DNA of 55,294 bases from a virus (Duplodnaviria > Caudoviricetes), in the IMG/VR virus record IMGVR_UViG_3300025658_000003, positions 1 to 55,294 of that record; one strand, given 5' to 3'. Below are positions 22,446 to 39,826 of the stretch, piece by piece. The notes below the pieces were generated by a model that saw only the letters and a program-made list of their open reading frames with translations, did not search any database and was not told where the DNA came from. Made by a program: the position numbers and the translations under genes. Position 1 is the stretch's first letter. The number at the start of each line of letters is the position of its first letter.

Positions 22446-22477
22446 TTTGGTAGTGTGGAATTTATTTCGTATATTAG
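22446..22477 (+). promoter_or_regulatory. Promoter TTTG-N20-TATATTAG driving a non-coding segment
   Basis: Same motif and spacer. Confidence 0.75.
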
Positions 22478-22481
22478 TAGT

Positions 22482-22615
22482 ATATTTAATGGTTATCTAT
22501 GATTAGCGTAAAGTTCGCTCTTAGTAAAGTAGATACTCGGTGGTTTTAAATCCACTATAAAAAATTAAGACCAAGTCAACGTGTGGGTTTAAATTAACGT
22601 TGAAAAATAAAAAGT
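22482..22615 (+). ncRNA. Putative structured RNA or 5' leader containing a preQ1-I-like pseudoknot (22539-22570)
   Basis: No sizeable ORF; stems tatctat/gtagata, agcg/cgct, ggtgg/ccact, ttttaa/ttaaga and tcaacgt/acgttga. Confidence 0.5.
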
Positions 22616-22623
22616 AAATATAA

Positions 22624-22655
22624 TTAGGAAGTTACAAATAAATTTCGTATATTTA
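22624..22655 (+). promoter_or_regulatory. Promoter TTAG-N20-TATATTTA upstream of SSB
   Basis: Same motif and spacer. Confidence 0.7.
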
Positions 22656-22694
22656 CATAAGTAATAATTAATAATAACTAAAAAAAGTAAAATT

Positions 22695-23480
22695 ATGGCA
22701 ATTGACTTAAATGCAATCCGAAACCGTCTGGACAGTTTACAGACGAAAACTACAAAAACTGATAATCTATGGAAGCCAAAACCTGGTAAGCAACAAGTAA
22801 GAATAGTACCTTACGTTCACAATCCATCAAATCCTTTTATCGAATTATTTTTCCACTACAACTTTGGTGGTAAGAATATTCTCTCACCTCAAACACATGG
22901 TGAAGCAGACCCATTAATGGAGTTCGCTGACCAATTGAAATCAACTGGTGATAGAAATGATTGGAATCTTTCAAAGCAATTAACACCTAAGATGAGAACT
23001 TACGTTCCTGTATTGGTTCGTGGTGAAGAATCTGAAGGAGTTAAATTTTGGGGATTTGGTAAAACTGTGTATCAAGAACTACTTGCTTTCTTCGCAGACC
23101 CAGATTATGGTGATTTAACAGACCCAACAAATGGTAGAGATATCACTGTTGAGTTTAAAACCGCAAAAGAGTTAGGTAAGAACTATCCTGAAACTTATAT
23201 CAGAGTTAAACCAAACCAAACTCCAATTACAGAAGATAAAAACGTTTTAGAAACTGTAAAAGACCAAATTGAATTACCAGGTATGTTTAAGAAATATACT
23301 TATGATGATATGAAAGGTTTATTGGAAACTTGGATGGAAACTGGTCAAGTAGGGGATGATTCTAAAGAAGAAGAATCTACACCAACTAATAACTCTACTC
23401 AATCAGCACCAGCAGCAGCTGTGAGTAACTCAACCAACACAGATGTAAAAGACGCATTTGAGGATTTATTCAATAACTAA
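22695..23480 (+). CDS. Single-stranded DNA-binding protein (gp32-like)
   Basis: LWKPKPGKQQVRIVP, VKFWGFGKTVY, TDPTNGRDI and an acidic tail DAFEDLFNN. Confidence 0.8.
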   Translation: MAIDLNAIRNRLDSLQTKTTKTDNLWKPKPGKQQVRIVPYVHNPSNPFIELFFHYNFGGKNILSPQTHGEADPLMEFADQLKSTGDRNDWNLSKQLTPKMRTYVPVLVRGEESEGVKFWGFGKTVYQELLAFFADPDYGDLTDPTNGRDITVEFKTAKELGKNYPETYIRVKPNQTPITEDKNVLETVKDQIELPGMFKKYTYDDMKGLLETWMETGQVGDDSKEEESTPTNNSTQSAPAAAVSNSTNTDVKDAFEDLFNN

Positions 23481-30518: not shown

Positions 30519-30550
30519 TTTGGATAATTGAAAAAAAAGTTGTATATTAG
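30519..30550 (+). promoter_or_regulatory. Promoter TTTG-N20-TATATTAG upstream of the HTH-mom-mom genes
   Basis: Same motif and spacer; implies a start at 30576. Confidence 0.75.
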
Positions 30551-30575
30551 TAATAAGTTACGAAAACGTAAGCGT

Positions 30576-30779
30576 ATGGCATTAAGAGGGGAATCACACC
30601 CAGCACATAAATTAACTGAAAAACAAGTTAAGAGTATCCGAAACCTATGGAAAGTGGGACACAGAAATGTTAGAGTATTAGCTCAAAACAATGGTGTATC
30701 TCCTGCTAACATCCGTAGAATTGTTAGGAACGAAACTTGGGTACATCTTTTAGTTGGAGAATTTGATAAATATCAGTAA
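30576..30779 (+). CDS. Small HTH DNA-binding protein
   Basis: RGESHPAHKLTEKQVKSIR...LAQNNGVSPANIRRIVRNETW resembles the stand-alone DNA-binding tail of HNH homing endonucleases. Confidence 0.7.
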   Translation: MALRGESHPAHKLTEKQVKSIRNLWKVGHRNVRVLAQNNGVSPANIRRIVRNETWVHLLVGEFDKYQ

Positions 30780-31537
30780 TGAAAGAAGAGGGAAAGAATT
30801 ATTGTGATGTATCAAAACTAACAGTAAGGAAGATTTCCAAATCCGTAGCTAAAGATATAATTGTAAAAAATCATTATTCACATCTATGGACTAAGGTATC
30901 TTACGCTATAGGTTTGTATATAGAAGATGATTCACATCAATTCTTCAATTCATCAGATAAGTTAATAGGTGTTGCGTGTTATGGTGACCCGATTGGTAGA
31001 TTAAGTGGGCAATCAATCACACCTTTATTAGATAGAACGGAAGTTTTAGAATTAGTAAGGGTATTTGTATTTGATGATTATGGTTCTAACATAGAGAGTT
31101 GGTTCTTAGGACAAACATTCCAATGGTTAAGAACAAATGTACCACAAATAAAAGGATTGATATCTTACTCAGACCCAAAAGAGGGTCATAACGGAACTAT
31201 CTACCAAGCAACTAATTGGCTGTATCAGGGTGATAAGTTAAGATTCAACGATAGTTGGAGTTTTAAGTTTAGTGAAGATGGTGAGTGGCAGCATGGTAGA
31301 ACGATATTTCCATATTATGGAACTAACAATCCTACTAAGATACAAGAACAGATTGATAAACCATTTTGGATTCGTAAAGAACCCCGTAAACATAGATACG
31401 TTTACATTCTTTCGAAGGGTGGTGAAAGAAGGAAGTTACTGAAAAGTTTAAAACATCCTATCTTAGAATATCCAAAAAGTGAAAACGAAATAGAATTAGA
31501 AATTAGAAAATTAGAACCAATTGAAAGAAGAGGGTAA
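30779..31537 (+). CDS. Mom-like (GNAT-fold) DNA modification protein 1
   Basis: KNHYSH, LELVRV, ESWFL, SYSDPKEGHNGTIYQATNWLYQG, KHRYVY. Confidence 0.82.
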   Translation: MKEEGKNYCDVSKLTVRKISKSVAKDIIVKNHYSHLWTKVSYAIGLYIEDDSHQFFNSSDKLIGVACYGDPIGRLSGQSITPLLDRTEVLELVRVFVFDDYGSNIESWFLGQTFQWLRTNVPQIKGLISYSDPKEGHNGTIYQATNWLYQGDKLRFNDSWSFKFSEDGEWQHGRTIFPYYGTNNPTKIQEQIDKPFWIRKEPRKHRYVYILSKGGERRKLLKSLKHPILEYPKSENEIELEIRKLEPIERRG

Positions 31538-32324
31538 ACATTATTGTGATTCCACTAAAGTTAGTGTAGCACCAATAGCTAAATCAATAGCAAAAGATAT
31601 AATCGTTAAGAAACATTATACTCACGCATGGACATCTTGTCGATACGCATTGGGTGTATATTATCAAACTGATGAAGTTGATATGTTTGGTAATTCTCAG
31701 AAACTAATTGGTGTAGCAATCTACGGATTCCCAGTCGGAGCAAAAGCACCCACATCAGTATGTGATGGATTAACAAAAGATAATATATTAGAATTAACTC
31801 GTTTATACTTAGATGATGGTTATGGTTCTAATATAGAAAGTTGTGCGTTGGGTAAAACATTCCAATGGATAAAAGATAACGATAAAAACATTAAAGTTCT
31901 ATTATCATACGCTGATAATGGACAAGGACACGTTGGTGGTATCTATAAAGCAACCAATTGGATATATCAGGGGTTATCAACGGATATAGCACTTATGCCT
32001 AATTGGGGTATATCACTATCTAAAGACCCGTATGGGTGGATTCATAGTAGAAGTGTTTATAACCTTTGGGGTAGTGGTAACTTAGAACATCTTCGTAGAG
32101 AGATAGGTAAAGATGGTTACACCGAATTTTGGAGAAGAGAAGAACCACCTAAACATAGGTACATTCAGATACTTGCTACCAATAAAAAAGAAAAGAAGGA
32201 TTTACATAAAAGATTAAAACATCCAACTAAACCTTATCCTAAAACGGCATCTGATTATAATACAGATATTATACATCATACAACATATGCACCAGAAGAA
32301 TCTAATGATATCAATTTTTGGTAA
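31521..32324 (+). CDS. Mom-like (GNAT-fold) DNA modification protein 2
   Basis: TTG start; KKHYTH, LELTRL, SYADNGQGHVGGIYKATNWIYQG, KHRYI. Confidence 0.82.
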   Translation: MKEEGKHYCDSTKVSVAPIAKSIAKDIIVKKHYTHAWTSCRYALGVYYQTDEVDMFGNSQKLIGVAIYGFPVGAKAPTSVCDGLTKDNILELTRLYLDDGYGSNIESCALGKTFQWIKDNDKNIKVLLSYADNGQGHVGGIYKATNWIYQGLSTDIALMPNWGISLSKDPYGWIHSRSVYNLWGSGNLEHLRREIGKDGYTEFWRREEPPKHRYIQILATNKKEKKDLHKRLKHPTKPYPKTASDYNTDIIHHTTYAPEESNDINFW

Positions 32325-32358
32325 TTGTTAATAACTTTCTAAAAAAAGTGCAAAAAAG

Positions 32359-32390
32359 TTTGGTGAATACAATAAATTGTTGTATATTTA
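32359..32390 (+). promoter_or_regulatory. Promoter TTTG-N20-TATATTTA, with TGTTAATAAC upstream (32326-32335)
   Basis: Same motif and spacer. Confidence 0.75.
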
Positions 32391-32399
32391 CATAGTAAA

Positions 32400-32472
32400 A
32401 GAGTTGATATCACTCTATAACGATATCAGAATTATAACTATGGGGTACAGGTATCACCCCAATAACGATACC
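32400..32472 (+). ncRNA. Two tandem putative H-type RNA pseudoknots in a 5' leader
   Basis: AGAGT-T-GATATC-ACTCT-ATAAC-GATATC and TGGGGT-ACA-GGTATC-ACCCCA-ATAAC-GATACC, with compensatory changes in both stems. Confidence 0.65.
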
Positions 32473-32492
32473 AAAACTTAAAACAAATAACA

Positions 32493-34010
32493 ATGGCATT
32501 TAAAAAATCAATCGATGCATCAGTTGGCGCAATGAAACTAAACCAACTTAGAAAATTATTTCCCTACATTCACGTAGACACAAACACATTACAAAGGTTA
32601 TTAGATGAATGGCCAGACCAAGTAAAAGCCGAACATATGAGGGCTGTATTTGAAGGACATTCCAATATTTACACAATTGTTCTAATTAGTATAGATGGTT
32701 GTTTAAATTATTGTAATAGTATTATAAATGAATATGAAAAAGATGATACTGAATATTCAGCAGTAGCTGAAACTATTGAGTACTTATCGAAGTTGAAATC
32801 AACAGGTAAACGTTACCTAAACATAGATGGTCAGCATAGAGTAAAAACTTATGAAGATTTTCTAAAATCTAAATTTACAATAGAAGCTTCGGTATTTGAT
32901 TATGTTGATAATGGTGATGGTGCACCAATAGCTTTTCAACTAAAGGGTGTTAAGTTCAAAGATATGCCTGAGCAGACCCAACAAACTATATTGGATACAC
33001 CACTTACATTGGTTATGATAAATAAAGCTACCTTACAGGATATGGTGGATGTAACTATTTACACTAACATTGGAGAACCTTGGAACAATCACGAACGAAG
33101 AATAATTATCCCATCTAAGTTTAATAGATTTCTGATTAATTATATGAATGATAATCCCTTAATGGAAGCGATGTTCAATAACACAAAAAACCTAGCAGGT
33201 AAATATTCTATTGTAAAGAAGGGTGATGCCTTAATGGTGGCTGAATGGGTTGGGTATCATTATAATAGTTTAAAAGGTGAAATATATAAATGGCCAGATG
33301 ATATTCAATTAAATACACAATCATCGGTTATTGGATTAGATGGGCATTCTACTTCTAAACTAAATAAATCAACATCACTTATTTCTAAATTGGTAGAGAT
33401 TGTAAACACAGCAAGTTCTGTAAAGTTTGAAAGAACTCTTTTGGATAATTTATTTATACTACTTACGGCATTAGATTCATCATCACATCCACTAAATTCA
33501 TTTCAGAAGAAAGTTAAGATTTCAAGTCCATCTAAATTTTTAGATTGGTTCTTAAAAATGGAATCAACACTTAGAGAACGTGATTTTTATATGAAGGATA
33601 AGGATGGTAATATCTATATTGATGACTTTGGTAATAAATCTACGAATTCGGAATCATTCAAAAGAAAGTGTGGAGCTAAGAAAGTTGATGATATTGAGAA
33701 GAGAAGTACTTTAATGATTCAGGAATTTAATAATGATTACAATGACTTATTTGCATCTGGTGTTGTATCTTTGGTAGACACAAACAATTTCACCAAAGCC
33801 GATAAATTAGAAGTAGCCATTGAAAATGACTTTAAAGATGCTAGTGGTAACGAATTTACTTTTGAAGAACTTATGGGTTCTAATTCTATAATAGAAGGAG
33901 ACCACCAAGAAGCTAGAGATGGTGGTAATTCTACATCTAAAGAAAACCTAACTCTTAGAACTAAGAGAGCAAATATTAGAAAATCTAACAAAAAAATGAT
34001 AAGTATATGA
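32493..34010 (+). CDS. DUF262/ParB-like plus C-terminal HNH-like protein (GmrSD-like architecture)
   Basis: NIDGQHR, TNIGEPW and C-terminal EGDHQEARDGGNSTSKENL...ANIRKSNK. Confidence 0.7.
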   Translation: MAFKKSIDASVGAMKLNQLRKLFPYIHVDTNTLQRLLDEWPDQVKAEHMRAVFEGHSNIYTIVLISIDGCLNYCNSIINEYEKDDTEYSAVAETIEYLSKLKSTGKRYLNIDGQHRVKTYEDFLKSKFTIEASVFDYVDNGDGAPIAFQLKGVKFKDMPEQTQQTILDTPLTLVMINKATLQDMVDVTIYTNIGEPWNNHERRIIIPSKFNRFLINYMNDNPLMEAMFNNTKNLAGKYSIVKKGDALMVAEWVGYHYNSLKGEIYKWPDDIQLNTQSSVIGLDGHSTSKLNKSTSLISKLVEIVNTASSVKFERTLLDNLFILLTALDSSSHPLNSFQKKVKISSPSKFLDWFLKMESTLRERDFYMKDKDGNIYIDDFGNKSTNSESFKRKCGAKKVDDIEKRSTLMIQEFNNDYNDLFASGVVSLVDTNNFTKADKLEVAIENDFKDASGNEFTFEELMGSNSIIEGDHQEARDGGNSTSKENLTLRTKRANIRKSNKKMISI

Positions 34011-35128
34011 AAGTATTAGTAATACCAAATTATACTAACTTTGGACAAGTAAAGGACATCAATAGGGATTCATTCCTATTGGTGTTCAAATCGTTCTTAG
34101 ATAATACCAAAATAGGAAAAGAATGGGAATGGATTTTACCATATCCTGGCGGACACCATAACCATCCGGGTATTATCAACCAGTTCGATTACCCAAATGT
34201 TAGTTTACGAAAGATGGATACAATAGAACCATTCCCACCTAAAATGAGGGTGGATTATCCATATAGGTTTTTTGATAAACTTATAGAAAAAGAAGAATCA
34301 AATTTCAATCTTATTTGGAGTCATCTTCCTGAGTGGACAAACAATTATGTAATCACTAGGATATATAATAAGAATCAACCGATTATTGGTTATTGCCATT
34401 GGAGTGAAATACCTGATAATGGAGCAAGAACTGATAACTCATTTTGGAATAATCTCAGAGGTATATTACAGATGAAAGTTTGTGGTGTAAATTCAAACTA
34501 TCAGAAAGGTGTTATCCTTAAAAACGCAGCTAAAGATTTTAAACCACATATCGTTGAGAAGTTGGATAAGATTATTCAACCTTGGTATTTAGGGTGTGAT
34601 TCAGCTACTCCATCAAATGGGTATGATGAGAAAACTATCGTATTCAATCATAGAGAAGGTGTTTATACTGGTTCTAAATGGTTCTTTGAAACTATGGATG
34701 AATTATGGAAAGAGCGACAAGATTTTAAAGTTTACATTACTCTAAAAGAAATGGATAAACCATATACAAAATACATTGGACACGCTGATAGGGATGTATA
34801 TCTTAATCAGTTAGCAAAATCACATTTTGGTGTTGGGTGTTTCGAAGGTTATTCAGCATGGAGTATGAGTGCTACTGATGGGTTGAGTAGAGGTGTACCA
34901 TATCTACTTCCAGATGGGTATTGTTATCCTGAAATGGTAGGTGATGATTATCCGTTATTATATAATGGTAGAACAGAATTCAAAGAAAAAGTAATTAAAC
35001 TATTAGATGGGGATATAAAAAGACCCGATGTAACAGGTATTGCAGAATCACTATTATGGGAGAGTCAACTTAAAAAGTGGGATATCGAAAATAATTTCGT
35101 GAAAAACGTTAGGATATTTGAAGAATAA
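34007..35128 (+). CDS. GT-B glycosyltransferase, possibly DNA-directed
   Basis: IVFNHR, WSMSATDGLSRGVPYLLP, YPEM; overlaps the DUF262-HNH stop and lies upstream of PolB. Confidence 0.65.
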   Translation: MKVLVIPNYTNFGQVKDINRDSFLLVFKSFLDNTKIGKEWEWILPYPGGHHNHPGIINQFDYPNVSLRKMDTIEPFPPKMRVDYPYRFFDKLIEKEESNFNLIWSHLPEWTNNYVITRIYNKNQPIIGYCHWSEIPDNGARTDNSFWNNLRGILQMKVCGVNSNYQKGVILKNAAKDFKPHIVEKLDKIIQPWYLGCDSATPSNGYDEKTIVFNHREGVYTGSKWFFETMDELWKERQDFKVYITLKEMDKPYTKYIGHADRDVYLNQLAKSHFGVGCFEGYSAWSMSATDGLSRGVPYLLPDGYCYPEMVGDDYPLLYNGRTEFKEKVIKLLDGDIKRPDVTGIAESLLWESQLKKWDIENNFVKNVRIFEE

Positions 35129-35140
35129 TTCGTATATTGT
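35109..35140 (+). promoter_or_regulatory. Promoter TTAG-N20-TATATTGT
   Basis: Same spacer; variant -7 element. Confidence 0.6.
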
Positions 35141-35339: not shown

Positions 35340-37856
35340 ATGTATCAAAACGTATATTATGAAAAAGAAGGTGGTATCATCCATTGTTGGGATGATAGAA
35401 AGGGATATTTCACATCCAAATACAGAAATTACGCATATGTAAAAGATGGTAATGGTTCATATGAATCAATACATGGTGAGAGGTTAAAGAAGATTAACTT
35501 TTGGAAGAAAGAGGATAATCTACAACTATTTGAATCAGATGTAAATGAAATGACTAGATTCCTAATAGATAACTATGGGGATTCGGATGAGGTATCAGAT
35601 GGGCATGTTACGTTAACTTTTGATATTGAGGTTGAAATGAACTCAGGTCTTCCTGATGTTATGGAAGCAGAGAACACAATGACTTCAGTAGCATTCCATG
35701 ATTCAGCAACGAATGATTATCACGTATATGTTCTGAGTGAGGGTGAAGAGATTAACAAAACTATCAAAGGAGCTAAAGTACGTTCATTCCGTAGTGAGGC
35801 TGATATGTTAGTAGCTTTTGTAAATGTTTGGGAAGAGATTTCACCAACTATTATAACTGGGTGGAATATTGATTTCTTTGATGTTACATATCTTTACAAT
35901 AGATTAAAAAGAGTATTAGGTACTAAGCAAGCAAACAGATTATCACCAATCGGTAAAGTTCATTGGAACAAATATCGTAAGAGATATCTAATCGCTGGAG
36001 TATCTGCATTGGATTACATCGCATTATTTAAGAACTTTAATTATACTGAATATCCAAATTATAGATTAGATACTATTGCTCGTATGACATTGGGTAGAGG
36101 TAAGATTGAGTATGAAGGAAACTTAGACCAATTGTTCAGAGATGATATTGAGAAGTTTTGTGAGTATAACTTAGTTGATGTTGAGTTAGTAGTGGATATG
36201 GATAAGAAACTACAATTTATTGATTTAGCTAGAGCAATCTGTCACGCAGGTCATGTGTTCTATGAGGATTTCTTATTTTCATCAAAGTATTTAGAAGGTG
36301 CAATACTTACATTCCTTAGAAGGGGTGGTAGAGTCGCTCCTAATAAACCACAACGTAAATTTAAAAACGATGATGGTTCAGAGGGTGAGGGTAAGTTCGT
36401 AGGAGCATATGTGAAACAACCAAAGCCAGGTCTTTACAAATGGGTTTATGATTTGGATTTAACATCACTATATCCTTCAATCATTATGAGTATCAATATC
36501 TCACCTGAAACTAAGATTGGTAAAGTAGAAGGATACACTGCTGAATCACATATGAAATCACAAATGGAATCTTATGTAATAGAGGATGATAAAGGAAAAC
36601 GATACCCACCAATGGATAAGGTTAAGTTTGAAGATTTCACTAAGAAGATGGATTTATCGATAGCATCGAATGGTGTATTATATACGCAAGATAAGGTTGG
36701 TATTATTCCTGAAATTCTTAATGTATGGTTTGACCAGAGGGTAGAGTACAAAGACCAAATGAAAAAGTTTGGACAAGCTGGTAATGATGAAAAGTATAAA
36801 TTCTTTGCTCAACGGCAGTTAGTACAAAAGATTATGTTGAATTCCCTTTATGGAGTATTGGGATTACCATCATTCAGATTCTATGATGTTGATAACGCAG
36901 AAGCAGTTACACTTACAGGTCAGACTGTAATTAAAACAACTGAGATGATTGCTAATCAATATTATAGTAAAACCATTGGAGAAGAAAAGGATTATAACAT
37001 CTATGTTGATACTGATTCAGTATTCTATGAAGCAGCACCATTAGTAAAAGCTCGTAATCCTAATATTGATGTTACATCAGATGAACAAATGATTCCAGCA
37101 ATTTTGGAAGTAGCACAAGAAGTAGAATCTCATATCAATAAAGTATATGATTCTATGGCATTAAAAATGTTCAATATTAATTCACATCGATTTGATATTA
37201 AGCAAGAAACTATTGCTAAGGGTGGGTTTTGGGTATCAAAGAAACGATACGCTCAATGGATTATCAACGATAACACTGTAGATTGTGATAAGTTAGATGT
37301 AAAAGGATTGGATGTAAAACGTTCATCATTCCCAACTTACTTCAAAGAAGTGATGAGTACTGTATTGATGGATATTCTGAAAGATGAGAATAAAGATAAG
37401 ATTGATGAATATATTTTGAGAAAGAAAGATGAGATGAAAACTACAAACTTCATTGATATCGCAAAGAACTCAGCAGTAAAACATATGAGTAAGTACACAT
37501 TTAAGAATCAAGCATTGGGAGAGTTTATGAAAGGAACACCAGCGCATGTTAAAGCAGCACTTACTTACAATCAACTATTAAAATATTTCAAAGCAGCTTA
37601 CAAATATGAACCAATGAAAGATGGTGATAAGATTAAGTGGGTGTATTTGAAACCTAATCCATTAGGATTAGAATCCGTTGGGTTAACGGGATATAACGAC
37701 CCGAAAGAGATTTTGGATTTGGTAGAACAGCATATAGATTATGAACTAATTTGGACAAAAGAATTAGAAAATAAGTTAGATGATTTCTATATAGCTATGA
37801 AATGGGAAAAGCCAAATCCGAATTTAGCGTTGGCATCACAATTTTTTGGGTTTTAA
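35340..37856 (+). CDS. Family B DNA polymerase (gp43-like)
   Basis: ExoI FDIE, GWNIDFFD, YNLVDV, DLTSLYPS, KIMLNSLYG, YVDTDS, KKRY. Confidence 0.96.
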   Translation: MYQNVYYEKEGGIIHCWDDRKGYFTSKYRNYAYVKDGNGSYESIHGERLKKINFWKKEDNLQLFESDVNEMTRFLIDNYGDSDEVSDGHVTLTFDIEVEMNSGLPDVMEAENTMTSVAFHDSATNDYHVYVLSEGEEINKTIKGAKVRSFRSEADMLVAFVNVWEEISPTIITGWNIDFFDVTYLYNRLKRVLGTKQANRLSPIGKVHWNKYRKRYLIAGVSALDYIALFKNFNYTEYPNYRLDTIARMTLGRGKIEYEGNLDQLFRDDIEKFCEYNLVDVELVVDMDKKLQFIDLARAICHAGHVFYEDFLFSSKYLEGAILTFLRRGGRVAPNKPQRKFKNDDGSEGEGKFVGAYVKQPKPGLYKWVYDLDLTSLYPSIIMSINISPETKIGKVEGYTAESHMKSQMESYVIEDDKGKRYPPMDKVKFEDFTKKMDLSIASNGVLYTQDKVGIIPEILNVWFDQRVEYKDQMKKFGQAGNDEKYKFFAQRQLVQKIMLNSLYGVLGLPSFRFYDVDNAEAVTLTGQTVIKTTEMIANQYYSKTIGEEKDYNIYVDTDSVFYEAAPLVKARNPNIDVTSDEQMIPAILEVAQEVESHINKVYDSMALKMFNINSHRFDIKQETIAKGGFWVSKKRYAQWIINDNTVDCDKLDVKGLDVKRSSFPTYFKEVMSTVLMDILKDENKDKIDEYILRKKDEMKTTNFIDIAKNSAVKHMSKYTFKNQALGEFMKGTPAHVKAALTYNQLLKYFKAAYKYEPMKDGDKIKWVYLKPNPLGLESVGLTGYNDPKEILDLVEQHIDYELIWTKELENKLDDFYIAMKWEKPNPNLALASQFFGF

Positions 37857-38617: not shown

Positions 38618-39826
38618 ATGAATTTTTGGGACACAGAACCGGCTAAGCCAGTATTTGATTACGATATTCAGAGAAGAGAATTAATCGAAAATATGGATTA
38701 CCTTGCATCAATGACTGTTGAGGAACAAACCCTTTACAAAAAGTGGGTTGAGTTGCAAGAACCTAATATGATTAGAGATAAATCTTTGATATCTGAATTG
38801 TATGATACACAGTGGATGCCGAAGGATATTAATAATTTGGAACAAACTATCAAAGAGATTGAAGAGTTAGAACCTTATGTTGAAATCTTAGATGACCCCA
38901 AAGAATCTACTAAGTGGACTTATGTTAGAAAGATGATTCATACTATGGGATTTACCGCTAATCCTGGTCGTAACGTTAAGATTAATGTTAAGGATAGGAA
39001 GAGTGGTAAACTCTTAGGACAGATTTCATTAGCATCCGATGTAACATCTATGGCAGTTAGAGATAACTATATTGGGTGGAGTAAGGATAATAAGTTTAAA
39101 GATGGAAAACTGAATCATACTACAATAGCATCTACAATTGTATGTACTCAACCATTAGGGTATAATTTTTTAGGTGGGAAGTTGGTTGCTATGATGACTA
39201 CTGTTCCTGAAATTAGAAACCTTTGGAAAGAAAAGTATGGACAAACTCTAATCGCAGTTGGTACAACATCGTTATATGGAATACATTCTCAGTACAATGG
39301 TATTCCACATTTCAAAACACTCGGAGAATCCGCTGGTAAAATATCTTTGAAACCTGATGATAAGTTCTATGAACCTTGGCATCAATGGATTAAAGAAAAC
39401 AGAGCAGAGTGGTACGAAACTGCGATTACGAATGAAAGAATCCGTAATGGTAAGAGTATGGGTGTAGCAAGTGGGCCTGTGAGTGGTATCAAACAAAAGA
39501 TTCTTGGACAGATATTCAAAGAATGTGGTATCAAACAATCAGAGTATCATCATGGTTTTAAAAGAGGTGTATATCTCGCTATGATGTATGAGAATGGACC
39601 TGAGTATCTTCGTAAGGAGATTGAAGAGGATGAGTTGGTGATGAAAAAGAAGTTTACTGAAGGTGTTGATTACATCAATCGATGGTGGAAGAAGAAAGCT
39701 ATCAAACGATACACTAAACTACATTCAGAAGGTAGATTAAAACCAGAGCACTTATTTTACATCGATGCTATTGGTATGAATTGGGAACAAATGAAAGCTA
39801 AATATTTAAAAGAAGTCGGAAGATAA
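38618..39826 (+). CDS. DruA/DUF4338-like protein
   Basis: PGRN...GKLLGQISL...RDNYIGW, QPLGYNFLGGKLVA, TTSLYG..SQYN, LGESAG. Confidence 0.7.
   Translation: MNFWDTEPAKPVFDYDIQRRELIENMDYLASMTVEEQTLYKKWVELQEPNMIRDKSLISELYDTQWMPKDINNLEQTIKEIEELEPYVEILDDPKESTKWTYVRKMIHTMGFTANPGRNVKINVKDRKSGKLLGQISLASDVTSMAVRDNYIGWSKDNKFKDGKLNHTTIASTIVCTQPLGYNFLGGKLVAMMTTVPEIRNLWKEKYGQTLIAVGTTSLYGIHSQYNGIPHFKTLGESAGKISLKPDDKFYEPWHQWIKENRAEWYETAITNERIRNGKSMGVASGPVSGIKQKILGQIFKECGIKQSEYHHGFKRGVYLAMMYENGPEYLRKEIEEDELVMKKKFTEGVDYINRWWKKKAIKRYTKLHSEGRLKPEHLFYIDAIGMNWEQMKAKYLKEVGR

Follow-up and report, generated by a model that had tools for sequence, protein, structure and literature searches.

The DNA analysed here, referred to as the window, is the whole stretch of 55,294 nucleotides (nt) of the IMG/VR virus record IMGVR_UViG_3300025658_000003 (positions 1 to 55,294), an uncultured phage fragment that is 28% complete and contains a T4-like replication module. 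The gene of interest lies at 32493–34010 on the + strand (ATG at 32493) and encodes a protein of 505 amino acids (aa). Its leader, the subject of this report, was found to contain two small H-type pseudoknots in tandem.

Layout of the leader and evidence for its two pseudoknots

The leader is headed by a promoter-like site (TTTGG..N..GTATATTT) at 32359–32390, on the + strand like all features of the leader, which was assigned from the recurrence of its pattern in the window and from its conservation upstream of homologous leaders. The pattern, TTTG-N(17-22)-TATATTW, was found 8 times in the window, each time on the + strand, compared with 3.67 ± 1.75 times in shuffled sequences, and 3 of 100 shuffles reached 8 copies. 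From the position of this site, the transcript should start a few bases 5′ of the first pseudoknot. Pseudoknot unit 1 occupies 32400–32427 and unit 2 occupies 32441–32472; each fits an H-type pseudoknot, and both helices of each covary. The units are separated by an A/U-rich spacer at 32428–32440, which was delimited in the alignment of homologous leaders (A3, see below) and measures ∼10–15 nt in the homologues. The stretch between unit 2 and the start codon (32473–32492) is an A/U-rich translation initiation region without a Shine-Dalgarno (SD) sequence, contains UUAAA-like runs and was unpaired in the minimum-energy fold. No terminator-like site was present between 32390 and 32493.

In unit 1, stem 1 (S1) is formed by 32400–32404 and 32412–32416 (5 base pairs, bp) and stem 2 (S2) by 32406–32411 and 32422–32427 (6 bp); loop 1 (L1) is the single nt at 32405, loop 2 (L2) is missing, and loop 3 (L3) spans 5 nt at 32417–32421. 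In unit 2, S1 pairs 32441–32446 with 32456–32461 (6 bp), S2 pairs 32450–32455 with 32467–32472 (6 bp), L1 is 3 nt long (32447–32449), L2 is again missing, and the 5-nt L3 at 32462–32466 is identical to that of unit 1. These loop lengths permit the two stems to coexist, with L1 of 1–3 nt over the 6-bp S2, L3 of 5–6 nt over an S1 of 5–6 bp, and no L2. The units have a 15-nt partial repeat in common, 87% identical, and no tandem array was found by TRF in 32300–32560 at a score of at least 30. An earlier description of the window made from its letters, here called the sequence-only reading, had proposed two units of the same topology between a promoter at 32359–32390 and ATG 32493, with no terminator before the gene. 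The letters were as claimed, the promoter and the missing terminator were borne out, and the coordinates of unit 2 were correct, whereas the end of unit 1 had been set at 32428, one base too far.

Parts of the window were recovered in 20 sequencing runs from 12 studies, and contigs of four RNA-library runs span the leader. One of these contigs covered 32326–32611 with no differences and another covered 32408–32656; their depth is low, so that start, end, strand and RNA or DNA origin are not readable from them. Two other explanations of the region were rejected. An upstream open reading frame (ORF) from ATG 32440, which would run for 13 codons through unit 2, stops after 2 codons or lacks its ATG in the homologues. 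A readthrough or frameshift signal for the upstream gene Mom2 would be too distant, because the Mom2 stop at 32324 lies 76 nt upstream.

Judged from the window sequence alone, the pseudoknots are close to chance. A loose pseudoknot descriptor gave 100 candidates on the + strand and 93 on the − strand. With a strict descriptor (S1 of at least 5, S2 of 6, L2 of 0), 50 and 46 candidates were obtained, respectively, against 39 ± 5 in 20 Markov simulations, and neighbouring pairs of such candidates numbered 6 and 5, against 0–3 in the simulations. The z-scores of nested folding (−1.71 for the sense and −1.51 for the antisense strand) are uninformative for pseudoknots. The word ATAACGATAYC, with 1 mismatch allowed, matched 6 times in the window where 2.34 matches were expected, and exact matches were found only at the two units. 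Because the descriptor counts were near chance, the comparison of unit 1 with unit 2 within one sequence, from which the sequence-only reading had argued for selection on RNA structure, is itself weak evidence. The argument nevertheless held across homologous leaders, and it is these orthologous leaders that carry the decisive weight.

For this comparison, 58 homologue loci were fetched from viral and metagenome collections (some contigs occurred in both), giving 59 loci with the window. It was found that 37 of the leaders carried two pseudoknots, 7 carried one pseudoknot after three hairpins and 15 carried none; the motif is thus present upstream of the homologous gene in 44 of the 59 loci. 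Alignment A3 was built with MAFFT, by sequence only, from 21 distinct two-unit leaders; a MAFFT alignment of single units (A2) was not used for counts, because units 1 and 2 were misregistered in it. In A3, 97.3% of the 483 pair cells held standard pairs, compared with 83.2 ± 1.0% in shuffles, and none of 500 shuffles reached the observed value. When the partners were slid by 1–3 columns, 29–48% remained paired. Both sides had changed in 11 of the 23 pairs, and the covariation score was 0.396, compared with 0.130 for the shuffles.

All four helices contributed to this result. Helices 1 and 2 (unit 1) were 97.1% and 100% paired, with 3 pairs in each changing on both sides, and most of the unpaired cells of helix 1 were accounted for by the unit 1 row of L010, which MAFFT had displaced by one column. 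Helices 3 and 4 (unit 2) reached 92.9% and 99.2% pairing, and both-side changes affected 2 and 3 of their pairs, respectively. The A3 pair 54–71 in unit 2 took five pair types, and several both-side changes fell inside the closest clade (L034, L037, pair 54–71). RNAalifold, which cannot draw pseudoknots, recovered S2 of unit 1 and S1 of unit 2. The one-sided changes in A3 were G-U or U-G pairs, which would give C-A mismatches on the opposite strand; these pairs fit the sense strand only. Taken over the homologous leaders, these comparisons showed that selection maintains RNA pairing on the sense strand in the two stems of each unit.

The conserved letters were concentrated at the helical junction, where GU closes the 5′ arm of S1, UC|AC spans the continuous strand from the S2 5′ arm into the S1 3′ arm, and GA opens the S2 3′ arm. 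At the end of L3 of unit 2, AAC was invariant and UAAC or CAAC was found in all 21 leaders; in unit 1, a C stood directly before S2 in 20 of the 21. The junction and the AAC of L3 were invariant in sequence across protein identities of 48–99%, and L1 was variable in both length and sequence. The last pseudoknot ended at −16 to −21 from the start codon in 44 of 44 motif-bearing leaders (37 two-unit leaders and 7 of the four-unit clade), and the distance from promoter to unit was looser than that to the start codon. In the four-unit clade (L018, L019, L041 and L042), three hairpins with AGAnnn loops, ..AAUC tails and an S2 shrunk to 2–3 bp are followed by one pseudoknot. Between promoter and unit 1, the leader of L031 (L031:666-704) has ∼27 additional nt, which include a GGGGAGAUAA-type segment similar to the loops of the hairpins in the four-unit clade.

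As a separate observation, the continuous strand of unit 2 (32452–32458 in the window, and its equivalents in homologues) contains a conserved AUCACC, and GAGGU occurs within the S1 5′ arm in 9 of the 21 aligned leaders, without being conserved across clades. We take these two words to resemble the 16S rRNA 3′ end and the SD core.

An SD-like 4-mer was found upstream of only 8 of the 45 window genes, and the gene leaders are A-rich, which suggests that the host initiates translation largely without SD pairing. The pseudoknots could be considered as a structural element that acts without a binding factor, either by recruiting or positioning the 30S subunit on an SD-less mRNA (as a standby site or enhancer) or by shielding the mRNA from 5′-end-dependent or 5′-3′ exonucleolytic decay; tandem exonuclease-resistant structures guard RNAs from decay. 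The position of the units near the predicted 5′ end, the rarity of SD sequences, the fixed distance to the AUG and the poor conservation of L1 agree with such a role. However, only the 505-aa gene in the genome has the element, though most genes have similar SD-less starts; the extra 5′ nt of L031 imply that a terminal position is not required; and an invariant junction and AAC over such a range of protein identity suggest recognition rather than mere stability. A purely structural role was therefore considered unlikely, though not negligible.

Linkage to the gene and occurrence of the element

In the related loci the usual gene order was thioredoxin, a small helix-turn-helix (HTH) protein, Mom (1–2 copies), the block of promoter, leader and 505-aa gene, a gene for a 373-aa protein, sometimes a DruA-like gene, and the family-B DNA polymerase (PolB). 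In the window, the leader is preceded by two Mom-family genes on the + strand at 30779–31537 and 31521–32324 (Pfam PF25680, E-values of 4.4e-45 and 4.9e-45), which are syntenic in related loci. The 373-aa gene (34007–35128, + strand) overlaps the 505-aa gene stop with its start, and in related loci it likewise follows the homologue of the 505-aa gene, recognised by its DGQHR motif. The 373-aa protein had no Pfam family above the curated cut-off, and its ESM Atlas feature neighbours were GT4/GT1 families, so that its designation as glycosyltransferase-like is a lead only.

The 373-aa gene was used to find 27 further loci, and among them the 505-aa gene was present only in L150 (same contig as L018). 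In L125 and L127 the flanking genes were 92–98% identical and the promoter was kept, but the leader behind it measures 25 nt, has no pseudoknot and leads into an unrelated ORF of 658 aa. The slot between Mom2 and the 373-aa gene held no gene in L126 and L136–L142, and in other loci (e.g. L130:890-4000 and L146:1023-3994; compare L125:1936-4000) it held an unrelated ORF of 614–659 aa that matched no Pfam family and was in some cases accompanied by a PLOD-type glycosyltransferase. A covariance model, R1, which was built from unit 2, gave nothing below an E-value of 0.08 in the 27 loci, and with both R1 and a descriptor including the junction the pseudoknots were absent from slot loci with another gene or none. 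It follows that the leader belongs to the 505-aa gene and not to the promoter or the polymerase operon. Consistent with this, the promoter pattern is kept in L125, where a different gene comes next, and the homology break with L125 falls after the promoter, which makes the repeats part of the gene-side cassette.

The same loci bear on the idea that the interleaved inverted repeats act as DNA, either as operators for a DNA-binding protein or as a recombination boundary of the variable slot. The site does border a slot in which near-identical phages exchange genes, and inverted repeats of 6 bp spaced by 10–11 bp resemble dimer operators. However, the arms vary freely provided that complementarity is preserved, and they differ between the units of one leader, the G-T ‘pairs’ occur on one strand only, and the break with L125 leaves the repeats on the gene side. 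A role at the level of DNA was hence regarded as very improbable.

Searches beyond the slot gave a consistent picture of where the element occurs. No Rfam 15 family reached its gathering score in the window. In 32250–32600 at an E-value of up to 10, the Rfam matches were limited to ToxI (14.5 bits, located over the promoter) and a fragment of a human long non-coding RNA, with no riboswitch among them; in six homologous loci there were only sub-threshold matches inside coding regions. R1 was searched over 36 sources (237,691 bases), where it found 20 unit-2 copies at E-values of at most 1.9e-9 and 12 unit-1 copies at 1.5e-4 to 0.035, with nothing else better than 0.074; unit 2 of the window scored 59.3 bits (E-value 1.2e-14). 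In three whole phage records of 131, 147 and 271 kb, a single strong match per record was obtained, all others having E-values of at least 0.29. The junction-including descriptor matched 92 times in 639,297 bases on both strands, of which 87 matches lay in leaders and 5 elsewhere. An S2-based pattern in IMG/VR gave 56 stretches, consisting of family members and unrelated coding matches without S1, and revealed no other context; in 185,579 species genomes, a search with a unit-2 pattern yielded only 7 coding matches, which were GC-rich, chance-like and without S1. No description of the leader RNA was found in the literature at the level of titles and abstracts. The element is thus a well-supported structured RNA family new to Rfam 15, although its general kind, a cis-regulatory leader pseudoknot in phage mRNA, is known. 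Within the reach of these searches it is restricted to uncultured T4-like phages of aquatic habitats, a group that is abundant.

Another possibility is a tandem riboswitch, in which each pseudoknot would be a minimal aptamer like that of preQ1-I, with a ligand tied to the ParB-like NTPase or to DNA modification by Mom and glycosyltransferase, and folding would tune translation. PreQ1-I riboswitches are ∼30-nt H-type pseudoknots with a P1 of 5–6 bp and an A-rich 3′ loop that in some cases occur in tandem, and such small aptamers, as well as tandem aptamers, are known, which counts in favour of this possibility. The element is also cis, gene-linked and conserved, and the junction together with AAC could form a pocket. 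Nevertheless, S2 of preQ1-I has 3–4 bp compared with 6 bp here, L2 is missing and L1 variable here, and neither the window leader nor the six homologous loci matched an Rfam riboswitch model at an E-value of up to 10. There is no terminator or anti-start pairing that could serve as an expression platform, leaders differ in having 2 to 4 units, S2 being degenerate in three units of one clade, and the species genomes yielded only the 7 chance-like matches. A preQ1-I-like tandem riboswitch therefore appeared distinctly doubtful. An idea involving 7-deazaguanine was dropped, as the record (28% complete) contained no TGT family match.

The encoded protein and the control that the leader may exert

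The 505-aa protein consists of a ParB/DUF262-like N-terminal domain with DGQHR at residues 112–116, a helical middle and a C-terminal DH..N..N (HNH-like) motif. Fifty homologous protein clusters with 40–99% identity were found. D112, G113, Q114, H115 and R116, as well as N485 and N494, were invariant in 18 of 18 sequences; D470 and H471 were conserved in at least 90% of sequences, with one homologue having D for H471. The protein matched the PADLOC model NsnA (E-value 5.4e-9), and the Pfam family GmrSD_N (0.048) and TIGR03187 (0.059) were both below their cut-offs; no Pfam match was found over residues 430–505. Its AlphaFold model had a pLDDT of 80.1, falling to 63–66 at residues 461–490 and to <50 beyond 490. 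Structure comparison gave SspE over residues 3–196 (Z 7.0, root-mean-square deviation 4.5, 154 residues aligned) and BrxU (Z 7.0, deviation 14.7, 291 residues aligned), followed by ParB/sulfiredoxin folds (Z ∼5); these Z values are in a range that the tool warns may be common. With Foldseek against PDB, nothing was found at an E-value of up to 0.001, the best being SspE at 1.1e-2.

Accordingly, of the ‘DUF262-HNH nuclease-like’ label in the sequence-only reading, a probable ParB/DUF262-like N-terminal domain with the invariant DGQHR motif and the C-terminal DH..N..N motif were supported, and ‘HNH nuclease’ is putative, as it derives from the C-terminal motif alone. Like the GmrSD/SspE/BrxU proteins, in which DUF262 is joined to a His-Me nuclease, the 505-aa protein has the invariant DGQHR, the SspE and BrxU fold matches and the NsnA match; unlike them, it matches GmrSD_N below the cut-off and its C-terminal motif has no Pfam match. 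With Z values in that range, a ‘GmrSD/SspE-like’ label is reasonable but unproven. No relatives of the protein were present in 50,697 cultured phage records, in 185,579 species genomes or among PDB sequences, and all members of the family that were found came from contigs of uncultured phages and metagenomes.

A nuclease-like product raised the possibility that the pseudoknots act as an RNA partner, which would bind and inhibit the protein or serve as its cofactor, in a type III-like arrangement with a new class of toxin. As with the type III antitoxins ToxI, CptI and TenpI, small repeated pseudoknots stand directly upstream of a potentially toxic gene in the same transcript, the two are inherited together, and the unit number varies from 2 to 4. 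Three defining features of type III antitoxins are nevertheless lacking: the leader has no near-identical tandem repeats (TRF found no array, and only the 15-nt partial repeat is common to the units), no terminator separates it from the gene, and the product has no ToxN-type endoribonuclease domain (no ToxN/AbiQ-like Pfam domain was found, and the fold is ParB/SspE/BrxU-like), as the sequence-only reading had already remarked of the protein and the terminator. The Rfam ToxI match of 14.5 bits is far from the gathering score of 50 and misses the units, and the homologue loci without the RNA (L040 and 14 distant ones) also speak against it. An RNA partner of the protein was considered improbable.

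Among the three functions offered by the sequence-only reading (RNA antitoxin or cofactor, autoregulatory operator, tandem small riboswitch), the operator fits best, the antitoxin failing on the features just named and the riboswitch lacking an expression platform and well conserved loops. We tentatively regard the twin pseudoknots as a gene-specific, cis-acting translational operator bound by a protein, with a likelihood that we place somewhat short of even. A protein site was favoured over an aptamer because the unit number is variable, L1 is loose, the junction is fixed, and there is neither a terminator nor pairing with the start region. The protein would recognise the conserved helical junction (GU / UC|AC / GA) and the YAAC end of L3; by binding at unit 2, and cooperatively at unit 1, it would block or modulate the access of 30S to the adjacent initiation region. 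Candidate binders would be the product of the 505-aa gene, the phage family-B DNA polymerase and the gp32-like protein. Autoregulation by the 505-aa product would be the simplest reason for the strict linkage of gene and leader, and the linkage is only consistent with it. No RegA-like repressor was found by PHROGs on ten neighbouring ORFs.

Two phage operators are precedents for the proposed translational operator. In the review PMC3014915, gp32 is described to nucleate on a 5′ pseudoknot and to spread over an A/U-rich stretch, and in the operators of T4/RB69 gp43 a UAAC loop is the key determinant, with CAAC as a SELEX variant. The present leader shares with the T4/T2/RB69 gene 32 operator a phage of the T4-like replication-module type as its setting, a compact H-type pseudoknot 5′ of the coding region whose stems could stack coaxially, and an A/U-rich, unstructured run from there to the start codon. 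The differences are that two units are present here (four in one clade), 15–20 nt from the AUG compared with about 40 nt; that the gene is ParB/GmrSD-like and not an SSB; and that there is no sequence similarity and the operator here is a predicted one. The T4/RB69 gene 43 operator hairpin has in common with the leader UAAC/CAAC (at the L3 end of unit 2) and the family-B polymerase, which is encoded two genes downstream. In contrast, the element here is a pseudoknot and not a simple hairpin, precedes another gene, has only a 4-nt motif in common with it, and is not found in phages that have the polymerase gene without the 505-aa gene.

Several points weigh against the proposed operator. Binding to it and an effect on expression were inferred from sequence comparison and analogy. 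The relatives of the 505-aa product (ParB/GmrSD/SspE) act on DNA and are not known to bind RNA, and the likeness of UAAC/CAAC to the gp43 operators is limited to four letters within an A-rich loop and could be a coincidence; the upstream region of the polymerase gene itself has no such element. The locus L040, with a 59% identical protein, and 14 more distant (∼40% identical) homologue loci have no leader, which indicates that the control is dispensable. In the pseudoknot of the four-unit clade, an L3 of only 2 nt would have to span an S1 of 5, a tight fit sterically if S1 is not in fact shorter. Finally, the 21 leaders of A3 represent few clades, so that the shuffle statistics (0 of 500) overstate their independence. 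In L040 and the ∼40% identical homologues, the gene is joined directly to the upstream ORF.

A broader reading would combine the leader with its gene neighbourhood. The pseudoknots might form a new minimal class of tandem riboswitch, or an RNA that gates a ParB/HNH nuclease, sensing a nucleotide or intermediate of an undescribed hypermodification pathway of Mom, glycosyltransferase and DruA. We consider this speculative and unlikely, with some real chance of being correct; if it were true, the nuclease-like protein would be switched on only when the phage DNA is, or can be, modified. The leader singles out one accessory gene, within a cassette for DNA modification by Mom, glycosyltransferase and DruA, as in need of a post-transcriptional control of its own. 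Returning to the translational operator, identification of the binder would give a handle on a protein family without a characterised member.

Genome setting and minor observations

The G+C content of the window was 33%. The replication module contained genes for a gp32-like protein, RecA/UvsX, an RNase H-like protein, a DnaB-like helicase, RNR, the family-B polymerase, the sliding clamp and the clamp loader, and the closest cultured relative of the polymerase was that of Microcystis phage Mel-JY01, with 48% identity. The gp32-like gene lies at 22695–23480, and the motif searches with R1 and the junction descriptor gave no match there. Upstream of it, a copy of the promoter motif at 22446–22476 heads ∼150 nt without an ORF of at least 90 aa, followed by a second promoter-like site and the gene (22695). 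No tRNA and no Rfam match were found in 22446–22694, and the fold z-score was only −1.35; this stretch could be a small RNA or a long leader.

The family-B polymerase gene lies at 35340–37856. A TTCGTATATT promoter-like box was observed at 35118–35140, inside the end of the 373-aa gene and before a 71-aa ORF and PolB, and, given this box, the polymerase may have its own promoter. A DruA-family gene (PF14236, E-value 4.5e-21) at 38618–39826 separates the gene for the sliding clamp from that for the clamp loader; other relatives have it directly before PolB or before the 505-aa gene. Upstream of the Mom genes, a small basic HTH-like ORF at 30528–30779, syntenic in most loci, showed weak PHROG matches to HTH/HNH families and no zinc-finger motif. 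It overlaps the start of the first Mom gene by one base, an arrangement that presumably recalls that of com-mom in phage Mu.

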